Shown in pieces: positions 9,930-22,286 of a stretch of DNA of 64,000 nucleotides. This DNA comes from Sphingobacteriales bacterium (GTDB lineage Bacteria > Bacteroidota > Bacteroidia > Chitinophagales > Chitinophagaceae), in assembly GCA_016708305.1 (NCBI GenBank), contig JADJGB010000002.1:65330-129329 (forward strand), read 5' to 3'. The translations under genes and the position numbers were made by a program. Numbering within the stretch: the stretch's first letter is position 1; the number at the start of each line of letters is the position of its first letter. A model generated the notes under the pieces. The model worked only from the letters and a program-made list of their open reading frames with translations, was not told the origin of the DNA and ran no database searches.

Positions 9930-11420
<1,491 letters not shown>

Positions 11421-11425
11421 TTTAT

Positions 11426-11974
11426 TTAAATAGATTTTGGGAATAAATATATATAATCCAAATGTGAGGACGTTCGGTGCAGAACAGTTAAATATTCATT
11501 TAATCGGGGTGCATACTGAATGTGATAATCTTCGTGAAGCTTTGTTTTTAAAATCGTTATTGCCTTTTTTACTAAAAGAAAAACCTGATAGTTATACTTT
11601 GTAAAGCATGTTGTAAACGAGTTGGAAGAGTTGGAAAATGGAATTTCCAGAACATCCAAAATCAATTCCATTTCAAGGGCTTTATTCCTGCATACTTTGC
11701 CAAATTCATTAATCCGTTTATTGCAAGCAGCAAACATATTTGCCAATTGCAATTCTTTAGAATATCCTTTGTAACTCTTTCTGTAAAGCATGTTTAAATC
11801 GCTCTTTGCGGTTTCAAATAAATCATGTTCACCATATTCTTTATCAATATAATTAATCAATAAATAATCGTGAAATTGTTTACTTGCTGACGCTGCTTTC
11901 AAAACCAATTTTTGCAACTCCCTTTTTTCTAACGATTCAATTTTGTCTTTAATAATAGGGTTTATTTTTGCCAT
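11426..11974 (-). CDS. Hypothetical protein directly upstream of hsdM
   Basis: 182-aa ORF ending 5 bp before the hsdM start; no motif recognised. Confidence 0.6.
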   Translation of the reverse strand: MAKINPIIKDKIESLEKRELQKLVLKAASASKQFHDYLLINYIDKEYGEHDLFETAKSDLNMLYRKSYKGYSKELQLANMFAACNKRINEFGKVCRNKALEMELILDVLEIPFSNSSNSFTTCFTKYNYQVFLLVKKAITILKTKLHEDYHIQYAPRLNEYLTVLHRTSSHLDYIYLFPKSI

Positions 11975-12092
11975 ACAATATTTGATTTATCATTGAGGTT
12001 TTCAAATTTTTATTATAATGTTTGCTTCCAAATTCTCTATATGATATTTACTATATTTTTACATTATTTATTGCCAAATTATTTTCCTTTAT

Positions 12093-12316
12093 TAGCTTCG
12101 TAGGAGCGTAATATTAATAAAAATAATTTATCTACCGCCATTATTATAGCTCCGTAGGAGCGTAATATTTTTAGGATTAACAATCACCGTTTTTTGTATC
12201 GCTCCTATGGAGCTATTAGGTTGATTATATTTACCTTGTCTATTAAGTTTACCCACCGCTGGGGCTTCGGTATCATTTGCCTCCTCTTTTATTAACCTTT
12301 CGCCCCTACGGGGCTT
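12093..12316. repeat. Dispersed REP-like palindromes in both orientations
   Basis: Plus-orientation copies at 12093 and 12147; inverted copies near 12199-12215 (tcgctcctatggagcta) and 12290-12316 (attaacctttcgcccctacggggctt). Confidence 0.8.
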
Positions 12317-12332
12317 GCGTATCATTTCCGTT

Positions 12333-13426
12333 TAGCTCCGTAGGAGCGTAATATCAACAAAACCACCTTTCATCATTCTCGCTTTTTAGCCCCGTAGGAG
12401 CGTAATGTCAATAAAACCAACAATCATCATCCTCGCTTTTTAGCTCCGTAGGAGCGTAATATCAACAAAACCACCTATCATCATTCTCGCTTTTTAGCCC
12501 CGTAGGAGCGTAATATTAATAGAAATAATTTATTTATCATCACCGGTTAGCTCCGTATGAGCGTAATGTCAATAAAACCAACAATCATCATCCTCGCTTT
12601 TTAGCCCCGTAGGAGCGTAATATCAACAAATCCACCTATCATCATTCTCGCTTTTTAGCTCCGTAGGAGCGTAATATCAATAAATCCAACAATAATCATT
12701 CTCGCTTTTTAGCTCCGTATGAGCGTAATGTCAATAAAACCAACAATCATCATCCTCGCTTTTTAGCTCCGTATGAGCGTAATGTCAATAAAACCAACAA
12801 TCATCATCCTCGCTTTTTAGCCCCGTAGGAGCGTAATATTAATAGAAATAATTTATTTATCATCACCGGTTAGCTCCGTATGAGCGTAATGTCAATAAAA
12901 CCAACAATCATCATCCTCGCTTTTTAGCTCCGTAGGAGCGTAATATCAACAAAACCACCTATCATCATTCTCGCTTTTTAGCCCCGTAGGAGCGTAATAT
13001 TAATAGAAATAATTTATTTATCATCACCGGTTAGCTCCGTATGAGCGTAATGTCAATAAAACCAACAATCATCATCCTCGCTTTTTAGCTCCGTAGGAGC
13101 GTAATATTAATAGAAATAATTTATTTATCATCACCGGTTAGCTCCGTATGAGCGTAATGTCAATAAAACCAACAATCATCATCCTCGCTTTTTAGCTCCG
13201 TAGGAGCGTAATATCAACAAAACCACCTATCATCATTCTCGCTTTTTAGCCCCGTAGGAGCGTAATATTAATAGAAATAATTTATTTATCATCACCGGTT
13301 AGCTCCGTATGAGCGTAATGTCAATAAAACCAACAATCATCATCCTCGCTTTTTAGCTCCGTAGGAGCGTAATATCAATAGAAATAATTTATTTATCATC
13401 ACCGGATAGCTCCGTAGGAGCGACAC
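12333..13426 (+). repeat. Tandem array of 21 palindromic 20-bp repeats (consensus TAGCTCCGTAGGAGCGTAAT) with 20 spacers of 33-34 bp
   Basis: Cores start at 12333, 12387, 12441, 12495, 12548, 12602, 12656, 12710, 12764, 12818, 12871, 12925, 12979, 13032, 13086, 13139, 13193, 13247, 13300, 13354, 13407; hairpin GCTCC-GTA-GGAGC; the last core diverges after GGAGCG. Confidence 0.95.
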
Positions 13427-13883
13427 CATAGTCATCAAATATATATTCCGATTTGAAATCAATTTGGTACACATTTAAAAATTCGATATATTCTTCTCTA
13501 AACGTTTTCTTTCTGTGATGCTCTTCCTGATTCAAAATATAATTGATCACGATTCGTAATTGAGACTGGCTAACGGTAAATGCACCAAAACCCGTTTGCC
13601 ATTCAAATTTCCCAATCACATATTTATTATCGTTGATCCATTTGGATGAATTTGCTTTTATGTCTCGCAATAAATCCGAGAGATTGCAATCCGGTTTTAA
13701 CCCAAGAAGAATATGAATATGATCCGACATGCCATTTATGACCATCAATTTTTGATTTTTGTGGGTAACAATGCCCGTGATGTATTGATACAATGTTTCT
13801 TTCCATTTTTTGGAAATGAGATTGCCTCTGCCTTTTACGGCAAATACCACGTGGATGTATAATTGGGTGTATGTATTAGCCAT
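13389..13883 (-). CDS. tnpA: IS200/IS605-family (Y1 HUH) TnpA, REP-associated type
   Basis: YTQLYIHVVFAVKGR start, HUH motif DHIHIL, WQTGFGAF, catalytic Tyr in YILNQEEHH; no tnpB nearby. Confidence 0.88.
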   Translation of the reverse strand: MANTYTQLYIHVVFAVKGRGNLISKKWKETLYQYITGIVTHKNQKLMVINGMSDHIHILLGLKPDCNLSDLLRDIKANSSKWINDNKYVIGKFEWQTGFGAFTVSQSQLRIVINYILNQEEHHRKKTFREEYIEFLNVYQIDFKSEYIFDDYGVAPTELSGDDK

Positions 13884-13896
13884 TATTGTTATTTTG

Positions 13897-13915
13897 TTTC
13901 GCTCCTACGCAGCTG
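13897..13915 (-). repeat. Degenerate REP copy just upstream of tnpA, inverted relative to the array
   Basis: Reverse complement is CAGCTGCGTAGGAGCGAAA. Confidence 0.7.
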
Positions 13916-13938
13916 TTTGAATATTTTTCTACTTGGGT

Positions 13939-14068
13939 GCTATTAACCTTTCGCCCCGATGGGGCTTTTGTGTCTTTTGTTTCCTTTTTTCTATTAACCT
14001 TTCGCCCCGATGGGGCTTTTGTGTCTTTTGTTTCCTTTTTCTATTAACCTTTCGCCCCGATGGGGCTT
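13939..14068 (-). repeat. Three REP-like copies at 47-bp spacing inside the hsdS 3' end
   Basis: CTATTAACCTTTCGCCCCGATGGGGCTT occurs three times; hairpin GCCCC-ATC-GGGGC; encodes KPHRGERLI repeats. Confidence 0.9.
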
Positions 14069-14756
14069 CCTTTTCTTTCGCTGCTCTTATTCTCTCCAAC
14101 AACTTCTCGGCAGGTTCATCATTGGGGTCTTGCGGAACGAGTTTGCCTTCATAAGCTTTTTTGATAATGCTCAACCGCAGGGCTTCTGCCTGTTGCAAAC
14201 TGCCCTCTATGGTTTCTTCAATTTTATCGCAAACGGAAAGGCGGGATTCGATTTCTTTAACAATTCTATCTTGGTCGTTGTTTTCCATTGGCAGAGGTAT
14301 ATCCATATTAGCAATATCTGTTAGACTTAGATTTGCTCTGGCCACATCAACTACTTTTTCTAAATATTTTTGTTTTGCAACTTCTGCATTTAGAAAATGA
14401 GAGAGATATTTATTTGAAATCGACTTTTTTAAGCGAATAATTGCAACGGCTTGATTAATGTTTGAAATTTTGTCAAGGTTGAAAATTGCGGCTCTTCCAA
14501 TTGAAGCACCAACAAGATTAAATAGGACATCTTCCTTTTGCAAAATTGAACGCTTTTGAATTTTGTTGAACCCTAGACTTAAATACTTGGGATCAGAAAC
14601 ATCTATATAATTTTCACGAACATTTTCACTTGTAACAAAAAGCAATTGGGTTGCATCATTTATGTAGTTAAAGCCTTGCCATTTAGGTGATGCTCCTTTT
14701 GTAATTAGATTGCAATGCTCACCTAGTTTTACTTCATTATTAATCGTTACCCAATT

Positions 14757-15828
14757 TAGTTCGTATTAATTTTCTATGCTGCGTATCTGACGTGGTCTGC
14801 ATGGAAATATTTTTGCACCTGCTTTTTATTGCTTTTTCTTTCATTCATAAAACCTTCAACGTTGGCGCATTTCAGCTTTATTGATAGGACGCTTTTTGCC
14901 GATAACATTAGTCTTTACATCCTGATTCAAATATTCTTGCGCATTCAACTCAGGGCTATAGGGCGGAATGAAAAACACCTCTATTCGATGTTTGCTTTCC
15001 TCCAGCCACACCTTCAATTTTTTGTTTTGTGTGCAGGATGACCATCCGTTACATAGAATATCTTTTGTTTACTATAACGAATCATTCGTTGCAAAAAATC
15101 AATAAATACATCACCGTTAAACTTCTCTATCAGCATAAACTGTAAATGACCTTTATTGCTGATAGCTGAAATCATATTGAGCGAAAACCGTTGTCCTGTT
15201 GATTTCACCACGGGGTTTTGCCTTTAGGCGCATAGCTTCTGCCTGCCTGATGGTCGCTTCGCATACCGGTTTCATCTCCAAAATAAATCGTTCCTTTCTC
15301 CTTAGTTGCCCGCTTCTTTATGGCAGGGTATTCCTTCTCCAACCATTGCTTTACCTGCTCGGGTTTCTGTTCAAATGCTTTGCGGATAGGCTTTTGCGGT
15401 GTATAGCCCCAGCTTTTAAATATCGACCTACCTGCTTCACGCTTAATACAACGCCATATTTCTGTTCGATAAGCTGTTGTACGGCTGCACGCGTCCATAA
15501 ACTAAAGGCCAGTTTTAACCGGTCGGGCATCTTATCCTTTATCAACCGTCGAACTTCGGCAGCCTGCTGGCCGGTTATCTTCTTGCCTCCTTTTACGCCA
15601 CGCTTCTTATTCAAAAGTGAACGCTTGCCTTCTTTTTTGTATTTATTCCATGTTTTATTTACACTCCTTTCTGATACAGAAAATATCTCGGAAGCCTGCT
15701 TTTGAGTGCCCCGTTTGTTTTTTAAGTAGCCCACTATCCGAAAGCGAGTCTCTTCCTGAGCATCTTTGTTCTTACGTTTTGTATTAGCCATGGGCAAATA
15801 TACAAAATATATTTTAAAATAAGAACTA
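14757..15828 (-). mobile_element. IS630-family insertion sequence, ~1.07 kb, transposase broken into 3-4 frames
   Basis: HTH N-terminus; YTPQKP, FGDETG, DGHPAH and PPYSPELN motifs; ends TAGTTC(G/T)TATT in inverted orientation with flanking TA. Confidence 0.85.
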
Positions 15829-16279
15829 AATTATGTCTTTATTAATAATTAAAGAATTTGTCAACCTTCCTTCAAACGCCCATTTCAAAACTCCTTGTCT
15901 ATATACCTTCAATTGCTGCTTTGTGGTTTCTAAATACTCAATGCCTTTATCAAGGTCGGTGAGTAGTTGTTCGAGGTTGGCAAGGATGCGGTGTTGCTCG
16001 GGAAGGGGGGCGAGGGGAATATTTAAGTCCTTAATAATTCCTTGACTAATGTTGGGTTGTGCACCACCTATACTTTGCTTTATCAAGTTACCACGCTGAT
16101 ACAACAAGAAATAATACAAAAGATGTGCATAAATAGCGTCACTTTCAAAAATGCCACAAACAGCTTGATTAGTCGCAGCAGGCACTCCAAGAAAAGCTAA
16201 TTTGCCGACAGTTGCCCCATATAAAGCAATTAGTAAAGTTCCCTTAGGAAATACTTTGTATCCCTTCGTCCAACCCCGT

Positions 16280-17800
16280 CATTGTTGTTTAAAGTTGGCA
16301 TCATAGTTTTGTGGCAGCAGTTGGTATAGGTTTTGCTTTTTGGCGCTGTTGATTTTTTCGAATACGTGGGTAAGCCAGTGTTCGGGATTGATGTTGTGCA
16401 GGCGGCATGTGGCGAACAGGCTATAAAGCATTGCTGCATCCTGTGCCCGCTCGTGGCTTCCGGCAAACAGATAATTTTGCGCCCCAGCGCCACAGGGCGA
16501 ATAGCGTTCTCAATAAGGTTATTATCGATTTGCAAAATGCCGTCTGTGGTGTACACGCACAATTTCTGCCATCGTGTTAATGTATAAGCAATGGCCTTGC
16601 CAAAAGGACTTTTGGGTAATACCTTTTGGTGAGCAACATTTCGGTTAATGTGCTTTGCAAATTGTTTAATACGGGTAGGGCATGTTCATGCCGATGGTTT
16701 TTTATTTGCTCCGGCGTAAAGTTTTCATCGCGGCAATAGGATTCTATTTTATATAAATCCTGTATCAGGCTCAAAACCGCATCCGCATTGGCTTTGTCGT
16801 AATCTTTGGCTTCGTAAAATTTTCTGCGCGCATGCGCCCAGCAGCAAAAGGGGGTAACGCCTTCTACTTTATCGAAAGTTTCGTAAGCATCGTAGCCATC
16901 TGTTTGCAAATAGCCTTTAAACTTGTGCAACATAGCTTTGGGATACAAAGCGCCACGCCCGGGCTGATAATCGAACAACGCTAATTTTCGTTGCGTATCG
17001 TAATACACCCAATAGTATCCTGTATGTGTGGTTTGTTTTTTGTCCTTATCCAAACCTTTATCGTGGTTTCATCCACATTCAAATAGTTTGTATTCAAAAC
17101 CTGCCAGCAATGCAGGTCGTAAACCGGTTCAATCAACCGCATCGCATCTTTTATCCAGCCGCTTACCGTGCTGTGATTGATGTTTACATTTTGACGTTTG
17201 AAGATGGCTAACTGGCGATACACAGGCAGATGGTCCACAAACTTGCTTACCAGCAAATGCGTAAGCAATGATGCGCCTGCAACAGATTTCTCAAGCGGCA
17301 TGGCCGGCAATGAAGCAATGATGCGGCTTGCGTTTAATCCATCATTTGAAGGTTTGATATACTCGGGACGTACATATTGTTTCACAAACAACTCGCCGGG
17401 CCGGTACTCCAGCTTTTCGGTAATTTCTTTACCAACGGGATGCAAACCTTTTACATCCTCTTTGGGCATCAGCTCTATTACTTCGCGGCGAAGGCTTTCC
17501 GGCAAAGGGTTACGTCCGGGATGCTTTACGGTAAGTTTGGTTTGTTGCTTTTGATATTCTTTTACCAGTGTGGTTTTTACCACGTCTATCTGCCCCAGTT
17601 TATCATCAGGGAATAATTCAGGCTGTGAAACGGCGGTTGCATTTGCTGTTACAAACTTCTCTGCCCTGCCGCCAAAGAGCATTTTCTTTAATTCGGCTAA
17701 TTGCAACTGTAGCGATTGTATCTGTAATCGCAATTCAATATTGTGACTCCTTTCCTGTTCAAAGAGGATTTTGTAGTCTATAAAACTATTGCCGGAAGCG
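16280..17800 (-). CDS. tnpC: IS66 transposase TnpC, frameshifted
   Basis: KHPGRNPLP, KFVDHLPVYRQ, VDETTI, LQTDGY, CWAHARRKF and IDNNLIENAIRPVALGRK motifs. Confidence 0.85.
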
Positions 17801-17984
17801 ATATGTGAAACTGTTTGCAAGATGTTTACAGGTAGTACAAATATCATGCTAATAATTGCCTGAAATGCAGTATTGACAGGTATTTCAGACAGTATGGCAA
17901 TAGTGGAATTATTGGCAGGTAAACCTGATTTTTGTCGCACCGTTTTTAAAATTACACCCTGCAAAATAAATTGTAATTGCTGTG

Positions 17985-18254
17985 AGGTGATGCAAAAATG
18001 ATCGTTATGGCTGGCGGGAGGTCTTTCAAAAGTGCCCTGCTCCAATCCTTTTTCATAGAGCGCAAAGCCATCGCTATCCCATTGTAGTAATTTTATTTTG
18101 TTACCACGCCGGCCAATAAAAATGAATACGTCGCCACCAGCACATCCTGTTGCATCTCGTTGCGCACCAGGCCGCTCAACCCGTAGGCTCCCTTGCGAAA
18201 ATCAGCAGTGCCGTTGTAATAAAAGTAGCGACAAGCGGAGTTTAGATGCAACAT
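17985..18254 (-). CDS. tnpB: IS66 accessory protein TnpB, frameshifted
   Basis: Manual translation ADFRKGAYGLSGLV...FIFIGRRGNKIKLLQWDSDGFALYEKGLEQGTF. Confidence 0.8.
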
Positions 18255-18273
18255 AGCAGCTCTTTTAAAACGG

Positions 18274-18537
18274 CTATATTAATACTGCCCAACTCAAGCC
18301 GCACACCATTAGGGTAGCAGATAGTTGCGGCACTGCCGCGGTGGCTATCGGTGTCACCTGCGTGAAAGTGGGTGTGGTCGCTGCGTTAATAGGCAACCGT
18401 TTTTGCCAGTAATAATATTTGGATGCCGCAAGCCGGTGTTCTTTGCAATAAGATACAACCGTTTGGCCGCTTGTGCGGCAGGCTTCAATGTGGGCGTGCA
18501 TTATACCGGCACGGTCGGAGGTATTGTTAGTTTCCAT
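18274..18537 (-). CDS. IS66 accessory protein TnpA (HTH-like)
   Basis: SGQTVVSYCKEHRL..SKYYYWQKR; first gene inside the inverted repeat. Confidence 0.7.
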   Translation of the reverse strand: METNNTSDRAGIMHAHIEACRTSGQTVVSYCKEHRLAASKYYYWQKRLPINAATTPTFTQVTPIATAAVPQLSATLMVCGLSWAVLI

Positions 18538-18809
18538 CCGGCAAAAATCAATAAACTATCTTAGTAAAGCAATACGGGGTTGGACGAAGGGATACAATAC
18601 TTTTGCACTTGATTCTTTTATTGCTTCATCTGTAATCTTTTCTTCTGTATCAAGAATCAACCCTTTGTCTAATTCTCCTGATTTAACCCAAGGGATATTT
18701 CCACCAAAATATTTTGGCACTTTTCGGCTCGGTGTTCCACCGCTTGTTGTAAAGCAGATATCCCCTAACTTGGCAATTGTCCAGCCCTTCGGTAAAGAAT
18801 CAAATTCAA

Positions 18810-19499
18810 TCATGATTTGTTGGGGTTTTCTGAACGGGTTAAAGAATCGCCTTCCCAATTTTTGGGATTGTTAATGATATATTTTTTTATTCGCAGGTAT
18901 TCATCCCTGTTTCGGATGATATGGTCATGATAATTGGGTTGAAAAAAATGGTTGTGCCGATTGTATTTGGGTATAACCAATTTGTTATCGTCAATATAAT
19001 CATCAATTTTAGAATTGACCCCCGATTTGAACCCTGCCATAAACGATGAAATGGATTTGGGTTTGCGAATTAAATGGGGCGGTTGGGGGGAATGTGGATT
19101 CGGCTGCGTTTCCGATTTTGGTTGTTGCGGATTTGGTTGTTGCGGATTTGGTTGTTGTAGAGGCGCACGGCCGTGCGCCTCTACAACAACAACAACGTTA
19201 CCTAAATCATTGGTATTTTTATCATCCATTTTTTGCAAAACCACAATCGCGTGCAAATGGTTGGGCATGATGATATATTCATCCAAAAACAATTCCTGCC
19301 TAATTTCAAATGATTTTAACCATTGGGATTGCACAATCTTTCCAAAATCGGATAGTATCATTTGTCCATTTTTTATTTCACCCAAAATACATTCTCTGTT
19401 TTGGGTAACCAACGTGATGAAATAATATCCGTTACCTGCATAATCCCACCCTTTTAATCTGTTAGATTCAATTCTGTATTTCCCTGCAAATTTTTCCAT
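18810..19499 (-). CDS. REP-associated tyrosine transposase-like HUH nuclease (RAYT/Y1)
   Basis: RLKGWDY..GYYFIT, MPNHLHAI (HUH), QPNYHDHIIR and KYIINNP motifs; 1-bp overlap with the hsdR stop and 4-bp overlap with the hsdS start. Confidence 0.88.
   Translation of the reverse strand: MEKFAGKYRIESNRLKGWDYAGNGYYFITLVTQNRECILGEIKNGQMILSDFGKIVQSQWLKSFEIRQELFLDEYIIMPNHLHAIVVLQKMDDKNTNDLGNVVVVVEAHGRAPLQQPNPQQPNPQQPKSETQPNPHSPQPPHLIRKPKSISSFMAGFKSGVNSKIDDYIDDNKLVIPKYNRHNHFFQPNYHDHIIRNRDEYLRIKKYIINNPKNWEGDSLTRSENPNKS
19151..19190. repeat. Perfect 40-bp palindrome inside the RAYT gene
   Basis: GTTGTTGTAGAGGCGCACGG|CCGTGCGCCTCTACAACAAC; next to three ~15-bp tandem units encoding QQP(N/K)(P/S). Confidence 0.9.
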
Positions 19500-22286
19500 T
19501 ATGCTGCCAGTGCTTCGTTTAGTTCGTTAATAATTTCATCCATCTGCTCTCCAAACAACTGCCACATTTTGCCTTTACCGCCTTCGGCATCAAAGGGCGT
19601 ATAGTCTAAATCGTCTGCATCTAAATGTATGCTTGTGGCAATATGGTCTTTAATCATTCTCAGCCATTGCATTTGCTCTTCGGTAAATCGGTTGTGTTGT
19701 CCTGCATTCTTTTTCAACATCCAGTCACGGAAATTCAAGTCCACTTTGTTTGAATAATCAATCAGCGTTGAATCAATGCCTGAAATTCTGCGAAGCAATG
19801 AAACCAATGCAATCAATTCCGATTTTGGACTTCCTGTTGCTTTCTCTAATTGCTCATAAGCCCGCCAAACCTGCATAGGTGCAAGCAATGGTCTTTCAAA
19901 TTTCAGTTTTTCCAACACTTCCTGAATCATTTTGTAATTCAGTTCACGCCTTCTTACTGGTTGCGAATAGAAAATTTGCAAAGCTGTTATTTCATCTTGA
20001 TGTTGAGCAATCCATGTTTTAAAGTCAGCAACAAGGTTTTCGGATTTCTCTTTACTATCGGTTGCCCATCCTTTATTCAGTAGCGTGTCAGGATTGGTAA
20101 TATCAATGGTTTGTTCATGTGCTTTGCGAACATTTTCTATGTATTCTCTTAAATCACTGTTGTGAAATACTTCCGCTGCTTTTTCCTTTAGTTCGTCATG
20201 CAATTTGTTGACCGCTTCTTCTTTTGCTGCTGGCGATTTTCCAACCATTTCCATTTCCACTTTGGTTTTCAAATCATCCAACACGTCAGGATTATAGGCT
20301 TGCAACAATTCATTTACAACTTGCTTCAGTGTTTTGCCTTCTGCCTTTTCGCTGAATTGTTGCTTTTCCTGTTCTGTAACTTGCTTTTCTAATCTTGTCA
20401 AGCGATTTGCCAATGATGAAAACAAATCTTCGTCACGGTTCCCAACGGCAATTGCTCCCAATAAATCTTTTAGCGGAACACCGGGTTTCTTTTCCAGTGG
20501 TCGGCTATCGGATTTTAGGCTTTTGGTTACGCCAACAGCATCAATAATTACAAAATGGTCTTTAGTGTATTTTGCGCTTGGCGTTACTTTACGCAGGTCA
20601 TCAAGGGTAATAATTCTAGTTCCCCTGCCTTTCATTTGCTCGTAGTAGTTTCTGCTTCTTACATCACGCATAAAAAGCAAACACTCCAATGGTTTTACAT
20701 CTGTTCCTGTGGCAATCATATCTACAGTTACCGCTATTCTTGGTAAATAGTCATTTCGGAATTGTGCTAAAACCGATTTTGGGTCTTCGTCTTTGTTTCT
20801 GTATGTAATTTTTTTGCAGAAACTATTTCCTTCTCCAAATTCTTCTCTCACAATGTTGATGATATCGTCAGCATGTGAATCTGTTTTGGCGAAGATTAAA
20901 GTTTTCGGTACCTCAAATTCTCCTTTGTCAGTTAAGCGGTCGGGAAACATTTCAGGCAAATGCTCTTTGAAAGTTTTTATAATAAGCCTGATTTGATTCG
21001 GGTTTACAATGTCTTTATCGAGTTGATTGGCCGTGTAGTTTTCGTTTTCGTCTTGTAATTCCCAACGTTTTTTTCTTGATAGTTTTTCTCTACGTTCTAC
21101 ATATTCACCTTGCCAAATGGTTCCGCCTTGTTGGGTTATTTGTGTTTCAATTAAGAAAACATCAAAGCCAACATTTACCCCGTCTGCAATGGCTTGTTCA
21201 TGGGTGTATTCACTTACAATGTTTTGATTGAAATAACCAAAGGTTCTATTATCAGGAGTGGCTGTTAAGCCAATTTGAAAAGCATCATAATATTGAATAA
21301 CCTGCATCCACAAGTTGTAAATACTTCGGTGGCATTCATCAATTACAATGAAATCGAAAAACTCTATCGGCAATTTCTCACTGTAAACTACTGGCATAGG
21401 CTCTTTGGCTTGCCAACGAGATTCATTTGGATTTTCTTCTTCGGCTGCTTCTTCTAATTCAGTTCCTTTCAGAATAGAATAAAGCCTTTGAATAGTGCTG
21501 ATATAAACATGATTGTCGGTAGGCACAAAGCTTGATTTTAAGCGATGTACGCCATACAATTCAGTAAATTTTCTGTTGTCGTCATTTGGCAGAAAAGACA
21601 TGAACTCTTGTTCCGCTTGTTCGCCAAGGTTTTTGGTGTCCACCAAAAACAAAATGCGTTTAGTGTTCGTGTACTTCAGCAAACGATAAATAAAAGAAAT
21701 GGCGGTAAAGGTTTTTCCCGAACCCGTTGCCATTTGAATTAAAGCCTTTGGCTTAAATTCTTTGAAAGAACTTTCCAGTTTTGTGATGGCGTTGATTTGG
21801 CAATCTCTCAAACCTTCGGTTTGCAAAACAGGAATGTCCAACAAACTTGCCCGAAGCGATTTTTCGGTTTTCAGCCAATTCCTGAAAGTTTCAGGTCTGT
21901 GGAAAGTAAAAACCGGTCTTGAACGTGACTTTGGGTCACGAAAGTCAGTGAACCTTGTTACATCACCTGTGCTTTCATACACGAAAGGCAAGGGGTCGTT
22001 GTTTAGATATTTTAATTTGCTTTGAGCATATTGTTCCGATTGCGATTCATGCATTGTTAAGCGGTGTCCTTCTTCTTCTCGTTTTGCTTCAATTACACCA
22101 ACCGGTTTTTTGTCAATGAATAAAACGTAATCCGTTTCTTTTCCCGTCCTGCGTCAAATAGTAACGAACAACCACACCGATTCCCGCATTCAGGTTTATC
22201 TTGTCTTTGTCCTGAATAACCCAGCCGCTCCGCATAAGTGCGGAGTCAATATTATCTCTTGCTATTTGTTCCGGGTCCTGATTCAC
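19499..22286 (-). CDS. hsdR: Type I RM restriction subunit (~928 aa); probable GTG start at 22286, one extra A near 22140
   Basis: VIEAKR nuclease motif, MATGSGKT Walker A, DECHRSIY, GLTATP, QMKGRGTR, EcoEI-like C-terminus. Confidence 0.9.

Follow-up and report, generated by a model that had tools for sequence, protein, structure and literature searches.

Copies of a gene-terminal repeat unit, stop codon included, in a hairpin array beside an IS200-like Y1 nuclease gene of a Sphingobacteriales bacterium

The stretch analysed here is the junction of an IS200-like Y1/HUH nuclease gene with a head-to-tail array of units of about 54 nt, and lies in a 64,000-nt piece of contig JADJGB010000002.1 from a Sphingobacteriales bacterium (the window, in whose coordinates positions are given). 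The gene occupies 13883..13389 on the minus strand and encodes a Y1/HUH single-strand DNA transposase-like protein of 164 aa, the last 12 codons of which lie within the first repeat unit. Pfam Y1_Tnp (PF01797) matches residues 5-119 of the product with E=3.4e-27. The HUH motif, DHIH, is found at residues 54-57, and the catalytic tyrosine, as read from the sequence, is Y115 within YILNQEEHH. The protein passes the NCBIfam IS200 model NF033573 (70 bits against a cut-off of 55) and fails the NCBIfam model NF047646 for RAYTs (tyrosine transposases associated with REPs, repetitive extragenic palindromes), scoring 29.9 bits against a cut-off of 80. The translated open reading frame (ORF) carries the signature of TnpA_Y1 subclass 1.2, namely YILNQEEHH (Y---Q--HH), DHIH (DH[IV]H) and EWQ (WQ), and the nuclease fits this IS200-like subclass by the motif definitions taken from PMC6006769, which were used in place of that paper's hidden Markov model.

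The repeat unit consists of a 15-nt core, CGCTCCTACGGAGCT, which forms a DNA hairpin with a 5-bp stem and a 3-nt loop in the centroid fold, and a spacer of 38-39 nt. Allowing up to two mismatches, 23 core copies run along the gene strand from 13422 down to 12094, a total counted from one assembly. Cores 1-21 are contiguous, all on one strand, with a spacing of 53/54 nt. Units 2-21 of the array (12334..13369, minus strand) comprise 20 direct cores with three types of spacer, and the 53/54-nt period is overlaid by higher-order periods of 107 and 161 nt. Type A (AAAAAGCGAGGATGATGATTGTTGGTTTTATTGACATTA) is present in eight identical copies and type B (AAAAAGCGAGAATGATGATAGGTGGTTTTGTTGATATTA) in three, plus variants, while the five copies of type C (AACCGGTGATGATAAATAAATTATTTCTATTAATATTA; 13263-13300, 13102-13139, 12995-13032, 12834-12871 and 12511-12548, minus strand) are mutually identical. 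Tandem Repeats Finder scores of 1136-1289 for periods 54, 107 and 161 show that the array is not due to chance, and an independent metagenome contig from the Joint Genome Institute (L208, 918 nt) matches the window at 100% identity through the gene and on into the array for 5.3 units. The 5' flank of the core ends in CTATTRAYATTA or GGTGT. No GT(A/G)G head was found 5' of the palindrome; the only GTAG is one that spans loop and stem on the complementary strand. The commonest loop and closing pair in the whole family (here within 13355-13422) is C-TAC-G on the gene strand, that is, C-GTA-G on the complement, which is the GNA-triloop type of DNA mini-hairpin, a type known for its unusual stability, and may indicate which strand is structured. 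Unit fold energies compared with shuffles gave z-scores of -1 to -2, which are not significant. The hairpin is too small for that test, and the argument below is therefore carried by conservation and not by energy.

The first unit straddles the end of the gene. Hairpin core 1 (CGCTCCTACGGAGCT, 13408..13422, minus strand) lies inside the ORF and encodes (V)APTEL, and the gene-terminal spacer, spacer 1 or C' (ATCCGGTGATGATAAATAAATTATTTCTATTGATATTA, 13370..13407, minus strand), encodes SGDDK and the stop codon TAA (13391..13389) before continuing for 20 untranslated nt. With the core in capitals, the terminal codons on the gene strand read gtC GCT CCT ACG GAG CTa tcc ggt gat gat aaa taa. The protein ends in GVAPTELSGDDK, given at greater length as ...DDYGVAPTELSGDDK and ...EYIFDDYGVAPTELSGDDK. 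The original prediction, made from the DNA letters, held that these last codons consist of the final repeat core plus a C-type spacer and that the same segment, stop codon included, is copied five more times with two differences. Both statements are borne out: VAPTEL derives from the 15-nt core and SGDDK with its stop from the 38-nt spacer, and the five identical AACCGGTGATGATAAATAAATTATTTCTATTAATATTA spacers differ from spacer 1 at two positions (95% identical). Each C copy is preceded by a variant core, CGCTCATACGGAGCT, so that core plus spacer differ at three positions and would read AHTELTGDDK before the stop.

To follow this tail across the family, a collection of 5.8 billion proteins was searched, which yielded 6,831 homologs, and the closest 120 were examined for the tail. 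An [AST]P-x-E tail is present in 78 of these 120 (70-88% identity), usually as G-[VIA]-A-P-T-E-L followed by 0-7 residues rich in Asn, Asp, Glu and Lys. The source labels of the tail-bearing homologs include Saprospiraceae, Lewinellaceae, Chitinophagales and Ignavibacteriales, among others. DNA was obtained for 180 homologous loci, and further loci were reached through exact-protein look-ups and a phylum-wide genome search; the analysis of DNA constraint covers those with read-through of the hairpin, 18 distinct coding sequences in all. In these, GCTCCTNNGGAGCT is invariant, synonymous positions included, with locus L027 as the sole exception. Alanine is encoded by GCT in 17 of the 18 hairpins as against 35% in gene bodies, proline by CCT in 17 of 18 (25%), glutamate by GAG in 17 of 17 (24%) and leucine by CTN in 18 of 18 (43%). 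From nt -1 to +13 the entropy is 0 everywhere but at the loop and at three positions that vary only in L027; upstream of the hairpin it follows a 3-nt period, and beyond +14 it is high and aperiodic. L027 has exchanged both arms of the stem for a compensatory GCCCC/GGGGC pair (GCCCCGCCGGGGCT) and reads APPGL. The 78 proteins have only T, P, K, S, L, M or A as residue x, each of which can be encoded by the NNG codon that the stem calls for. The frozen synonymous sites and the compensatory change in L027 show that the conserved object is the hairpin DNA, with the AP-x-EL peptide as its by-product. The residues beyond the hairpin are unconstrained and predicted to be disordered. This answers a question raised by the original prediction, whether the VAPTEL tail is hairpin-derived in other genomes: it is so in the 18 coding sequences, and about 80 of the 120 closest proteins carry it.

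The reverse relation, in which the tail is a functional peptide under protein selection and the hairpin a side effect of its codons, could account for a motif in about 80 of the 120 closest homologs. We regard it as very improbable, since the synonymous positions do not vary, contrary to codon usage in the gene bodies, the stem change in L027 alters the peptide to APPGL, and the variable residue is confined to NNG codons. In addition, relatives have the same hairpin after their stop codon, and independent read-throughs of other hairpin types yield the peptides ITPTGF and STPAEL. The tail is also predicted to be disordered, with an AlphaFold2 predicted local distance difference test score (pLDDT) below 50 for residues 154-164; the model served only to judge tail disorder. 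The homologs P0082 and P0110 end in ...AAP(Q/T)TLRS(Y/S)GAKKQ before the stop, and LRSYGAKK is the next hairpin unit in another frame, indicating that some ORFs span two units.

In the wider family the hairpin is a regular companion of the gene. A perfect GC-rich hairpin lies within -50 to +45 nt of the stop codon at 125 of 189 non-redundant loci. A separate count over distinct coding sequences gave 135 loci with a hairpin, of which 48 have an inverted copy upstream of the ATG at a distance of up to 150 nt and 40 have neighbours on the same strand. These neighbours are spaced at distances that cluster at 47-54 nt despite differing stems (GCTCC, ACCCC, GTCCC, GCCCC, TCCC), often as 2-4 tandem units. 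In relatives without read-through, the stop codon comes 3-15 nt past a conserved Phe codon and the hairpin starts 16-36 nt past it. In the read-through clade there is no stop before the hairpin, which starts exactly 15 nt past the Phe codon, in frame, at all loci with a correctly placed anchor; the ORF crosses the hairpin, giving AP-x-EL, and terminates after 0-7 codons of spacer. A tree built on the 148 N-terminal residues places 15 read-through rows in one clade of 27 rows, with a Shimodaira-Hasegawa-like approximate likelihood ratio test (SH-aLRT) value of 87. Separate origins of read-through are seen in L046, L056, L115 (hairpin ACCCC/GGGGT, peptide ITPTGF) and L165 (STPAEL).

Since distant homologs stop before the hairpin and only the hairpin DNA is conserved, the tail is an old, clade-wide read-through into the repeat and not a gene segment that seeded it. 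The hairpin was there first and the ORF grew into it later. The original prediction would have been undone by homologs that end before the repeat: about 80 of the 120 closest run through the hairpin, so the objection does not apply to them, although the distant homologs do stop before it. Two features of the tree count against the overall explanation. A subclade without read-through is nested within the read-through clade or sister to it (SH-aLRT 93), and the tree, built on 148 columns, is poorly resolved.

A narrower version, in which this one genome happened to read through into an array that was already there, draws on the same-genus genomes. Their homologs are only 52-63% identical, with matches ending near residue 150, and the paralog on contig C8 of this genome ends in EYLFKWIE. 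The same-genus homologs are distant paralogs, and these genomes offer no orthologous site, empty or with a short array, for comparison. The tail is nevertheless common to 70-88% identical homologs from many lineages, the offset of the hairpin from the Phe codon is fixed at 15 nt, and most tail-bearing loci have only 1-3 units, which makes read-through independent of a large array. We consider the genome-specific version highly improbable. The low identity of the same-genus homologs suggests instead that the nuclease gene was acquired horizontally by this genome, as it looks from the comparison.

We return to the copies of the gene end within the array. Each of the five C copies sits in a 92-nt block that is 100% identical among the copies and comprises an A spacer, the CAT-variant core and the C spacer. 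These blocks argue for block amplification and not for five separate copies of the gene end, and the simplest history would be one founding duplication of the terminal unit, followed by amplification as 107-/161-nt blocks. Unit 1 holds the stop codon, so any duplication of it places gene-end copies in the array, and the C spacers, stop codon included, are by their identity paralogous to the gene-terminal unit. In the closest sister locus with DNA (L205, protein 88% identical), the gene-terminal spacer is of C type, identical at 31 of 38 positions, and spacer C' (13370-13407) is its orthologue. The L205 spacer starts with AACC, as do the array C copies, indicating that ATCC in the gene-terminal unit of the window is a later, derived change. 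The second difference between C' and C (G or A in CTATTRAY) does not inform on polarity, both states being common across the family. The claim in the original prediction that the array is partly built from the gene's own terminus thus stands in part: the C spacers are copies of the terminal unit, but the terminus is itself a repeat unit and the C copies appear to have been block-amplified.

The A and B spacers also belong here. The A spacer aligns with the gene-terminal spacer of L190 at z=6.0 and would read APTELKSEDDDCWFY before a stop in the gene frame. The alignments point to the A and B spacers being homologous to gene-terminal spacers of other lineages, and to all spacer types being one unit family, in which the conserved part CTATTRAYNTTN is followed by the core; the inverted units upstream of the gene (AGCCCCATCGGGGCGAAAGGTTAATAG) are the same element reversed. 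A point against the overall explanation is that A and B share only about 55% identity with C, are lacking in both of the closest sister loci (L205 and L181) and have no copies elsewhere in the genome.

Arrays in other genomes likewise copy the ends of their own genes, as the original prediction had suggested should be looked for. L203 (protein 80% identical, from a different metagenome and a locus unrelated to restriction-modification) has an 18-unit array with a period of 50-52 nt, and seven of its spacers match the gene-terminal spacer of L203 itself (tggaggtgattga..., encoding GGD and the stop), stop included. In L046, from Kapaibacterium, the array is four units long; its spacers share 86-89% identity with the gene-terminal spacer, and all of them retain ttgaaatga. 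In L190 and L027 the spacers resemble their own gene ends at 72-77% identity, and in L186 a longer piece (...FDDFGIAPTELNNGYNDY and the stop) is reiterated inside 184-nt units. Long arrays next to read-through genes were found at 2 of about 19 loci; almost every read-through locus has a direct doublet, and most have only that, with 1-3 units.

These copies, the 95% identity between the C spacers and the gene-terminal spacer, the C type at the gene terminus of the 88%-identical sister L205 and the published model of Nunvar et al. (2010, BMC Genomics 11:44, PMC2817692) would all suit a stricter scheme, in which the 3' end of the gene is the source, the enzyme nicks at the hairpins and each C copy arises separately. 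The C copies, however, are mutually identical, share a common difference from the gene unit and a variant core, and lie in identical 92-nt blocks that include an A spacer; moreover, the hairpin is older than the read-through in the family and the activity of the enzyme is a presumption. We therefore judge the strict scheme unlikely.

Core copies are rare in the rest of the genome. Of its 4.08 Mb, 34 sites match the core with at most one mismatch and 31 of these lie in two arrays adjoining Y1 genes, so that no genome-wide dispersal or over-representation of cores was found; perfect GCTCC-N3-GGAGC hairpins number only 21. The second cluster, on contig C2 (195150-196257, outside the window), repeats this core sequence seven times, in units about 200-225 nt long, and lies upstream of a Y1 paralog (43% identical) that is frameshifted. 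Its cores are oriented like this paralog and are not inverted.

As to how the units multiplied, the enzyme would cut single-stranded DNA at directly repeated hairpins and so start in-register multiplication, strand transfer or rolling-circle copying would come next, and host unequal exchange would then homogenise the interior units. Enzyme-initiated in-register multiplication with subsequent homogenisation is our best guess, at roughly even odds. The nuclease might also have had no part in it, the array having grown by host slippage or unequal crossing-over from an ancestral direct hairpin doublet about 53 nt apart. We rate this host-only route a serious contender that falls somewhat short of an even chance. 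Small hairpins and direct repeats of 15-20 nt are good substrates for slippage, and the direct doublet is there in nearly all read-through loci. The array itself combines higher-order periods of 107 and 161 nt with identical interior blocks and diverged first and last units, which is the classic signature of host unequal exchange, for which a transposase is not needed. That signature weighs against a role of the enzyme, as do two further points: enzyme activity and hairpin cutting at this locus are presumptions, and 13 of cores 2-21 carry a stem-weakening change, which would be odd if the hairpin were the enzyme's substrate. Junctions of hybrid cores (the CAT and GGGG variants), mapped by hand, fall both 5' and 3' of the core and fit either mechanism.

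Four observations favour initiation by the enzyme and are hard to reconcile with the host acting alone. Lineages with divergent hairpin types share the 47-54-nt period, these genes repeatedly have long arrays beside them (2 of about 19 read-through loci), the repeats occur almost only beside Y1 genes (31 of 34 genome cores, pointing to local multiplication), and slippage of a doublet carrying only C could not yield the divergent A and B units. A CRISPR-like (clustered regularly interspaced short palindromic repeats) or other RNA-encoding locus unrelated to the nuclease gene is suggested by the regular repeat-spacer geometry and the palindromic repeat. CRISPR arrays have identical repeats and unique spacers, whereas the three spacer types here are mutually homologous and repeated up to eight times, and the repeats vary. 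The first repeat lies inside a gene, the same units flank homologous genes elsewhere, and an Rfam scan of 11800-14200 gave no match at E up to 1; the chance of such a locus is negligible. Taken together, the array anatomy, the conservation of hairpin DNA, the read-through and the block-amplified C copies, with multiplication started by the enzyme as the conjectural part, make up what is likely to be the best overall explanation.

Beyond the array and upstream of the gene, further hairpins occur. An inverted core copy (CGCTCCTACGCAGCT, one mismatch; 13900..13914, plus strand) lies 17 nt upstream of the ATG and brackets the gene together with the array in a REPtron-like manner; the same arrangement is found in L181, L199 and L205. 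Farther upstream, at 13940..14068 on the plus strand, a sister hairpin type (CGCCCCGATGGGGCT, with CTATTAACCTTT in front of it) forms three inverted units with a period of 51 nt. At the other end, a linker 3' of the array (12163..12333) includes inverted hairpins, with cores on the plus strand at 12301-12315 and at 12200-12214. This linker is similar to the stretch upstream of the gene and homologous to what lies 3' of the repeat doublet in L205, namely a linker with inverted hairpins. Two distal direct cores follow (units 22-23; 12094..12162, minus strand) with a diverged C-like spacer that aligns with the gene-terminal spacer at z=4.8. In L205 (European Nucleotide Archive ERZ15186001, 1254 nt) the segment after the gene, comprising core, C-type spacer, core, linker and inverted hairpin, recurs upstream of the gene with four differences. 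This recurrence suggests that the whole gene-plus-repeats unit may be tandemly repeated there, and in the window the linker with its inverted hairpins (12163-12333) and the two direct cores beyond it look like a second such unit from which the gene was lost.

The nuclease gene lies between hsdS and hsdM of a type I restriction-modification operon (9936-22054 of the window). The order hsdS-gene-hsdM is also found in an Ignavibacteriales metagenome-assembled genome (L189, 1-5241) and in three metagenome contigs (L199, 1553-5233; L200; L201), in all of which the hsdS stop codon abuts or overlaps the nuclease start. HsdM of these four loci is 77-79% identical to the copy in the window and the nuclease 79-83%. 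Given this common order, the nuclease gene appears to be a long-standing passenger or component of the cassette; the clade members L186, L190, L202 and L203 are not in restriction-modification loci. The hsdM frame (9936-11420, minus strand) aligns over all 500 aa with intact homologs while its ORF ends at 10314, indicating an in-frame premature stop, and it is probably a pseudogene or contains a sequencing error. The hsdS gene (13929-18816, minus strand) is fragmented into pieces at 13995-14588, 15856-16257 and 18595-18816, between which lie a frameshifted IS630-like remnant (DDE_3, helix-turn-helix; 14856-15797) and a frameshifted IS66-family remnant (16230-18045). The restriction-modification system thus looks dead from its predicted genes. 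The tail of the hsdS fragment (13929-14100, minus strand; ...KEAPSGRKVNRKRKQKTQKPHRGERLIEKRKQKTQKPHRGERLIAPK before the stop) is translated in frame from the three inverted hairpin units at 13940-14068, making hsdS a second gene that reads into repeats, and hsdS in L189 and L199 likewise runs through inverted hairpins. A 229-aa ORF between hsdR and the N-terminal piece of hsdS (18810-19499, minus strand) has no Pfam match and scores 62.9 bits, below the cut-off of 80, with the NCBIfam RAYT model; this may be another Y1 nuclease of the operon, a divergent one.

The copying of gene ends has precedent, and the nick-and-rolling-circle model is not new. Nunvar et al. described four classical RAYTs in which the 3' end of the gene and the sequence from the stop to the REP are built into the adjacent downstream bacterial interspersed mosaic element (BIME), and proposed cleavage at two direct REPs followed by rolling-circle copying (PMC2817692, Additional file 4 and Fig. 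6B). As in those cases, the 3' end of a Y1 gene, stop included, is here reiterated in the segments between repeats of a cluster directly downstream. The published cases are proteobacterial RAYTs with GT(A/G)G-headed REPs that alternate in orientation within BIMEs and follow the stop codon. The window has an IS200-like subclass 1.2 enzyme, units that are all direct, with the 21 contiguous cores on one strand, and a hairpin inside the ORF in an overlap conserved across the clade. REPtrons with REPs concentrated near tnpA_REP are known from Marinomonas sp. MWYL1 (REPtron Mb) and Thauera, where the concentration was read as local multiplication after acquisition (PMC2817692, PMC8266576). The present locus shares with them a small 5-bp palindrome, the bracketing of the gene by inverted REPs and a clustering of copies close to it, but lacks the GTAG head; its genome has only 34 copies, 31 of them in two tandem arrays, and its protein fails the RAYT model.

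Quentin et al. (2018, BMC Genomics 19:475, PMC6006769) list subclass 1.2 without REPs and as 'generally without' terminal structures. The gene described here agrees with that subclass in its motifs, in the length of its core (about 150 aa), in having a specific C-terminal domain, in its low copy number and in occurrence in Bacteroidetes/Cyanobacteria. Its family departs from the published description in having a hairpin near the stop at 125 of 189 loci and an upstream inverted copy at 48 of 135 hairpin loci. The same authors report REP insertions within tnpA_REP genes of subclass 2.4, a likeness in that REP sequence lies within a Y1 gene. Those insertions are in the gene body, whereas here a 3' flanking hairpin joined the ORF by loss of a stop and the catalytic domain is uninterrupted. 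The resemblance to IS200/IS605 TnpA extends to the closest protein model (NF033573) and to hairpins as presumptive recognition elements. Unlike those elements, the gene is single-copy in the genome (paralogs at most 52% identical, and no second element copy above that identity), and its flanking hairpins are inverted where the left and right hairpins of IS200/IS605 are on the same strand. The present case differs from what was known in its enzyme subclass, in having no GTAG head, in an array made up of direct units throughout, in a very low genome-wide copy number and in a hairpin that a whole clade has inside the ORF.

An IS200-like subclass recorded without REPs thus shows a REPtron-like organisation, in which the hairpins are very small and the unit is conserved at about 50-54 nt. 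Throughout one clade the hairpin, as the presumptive recognition element, is translated as part of the gene, and the protein motif AP-x-EL is conserved only because the DNA is. For annotation this sets two traps, the APTEL tail and the CRISPR-like geometry, and warns that behind a conserved 'protein motif' there can be a DNA hairpin that is translated. The main value of the locus is as a tractable system for testing REP multiplication: its unidirectional arrays have a readable block structure and a built-in tag, the stop codon of the gene. We put forward, tentatively and at less than even chances, that subclass 1.2 Y1 nucleases are active in cis on a mini-repeat, made up of one hairpin and about 38 nt, and multiply it in register through cuts at directly repeated hairpins. 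If this is true, the activity of the enzyme would have left a fossil record in the arrays, with 23 units here and 18 in L203, the first hairpin in the ORF would tag every product with the gene's stop codon, and the family would offer a simple natural system for working out how REPs multiply.

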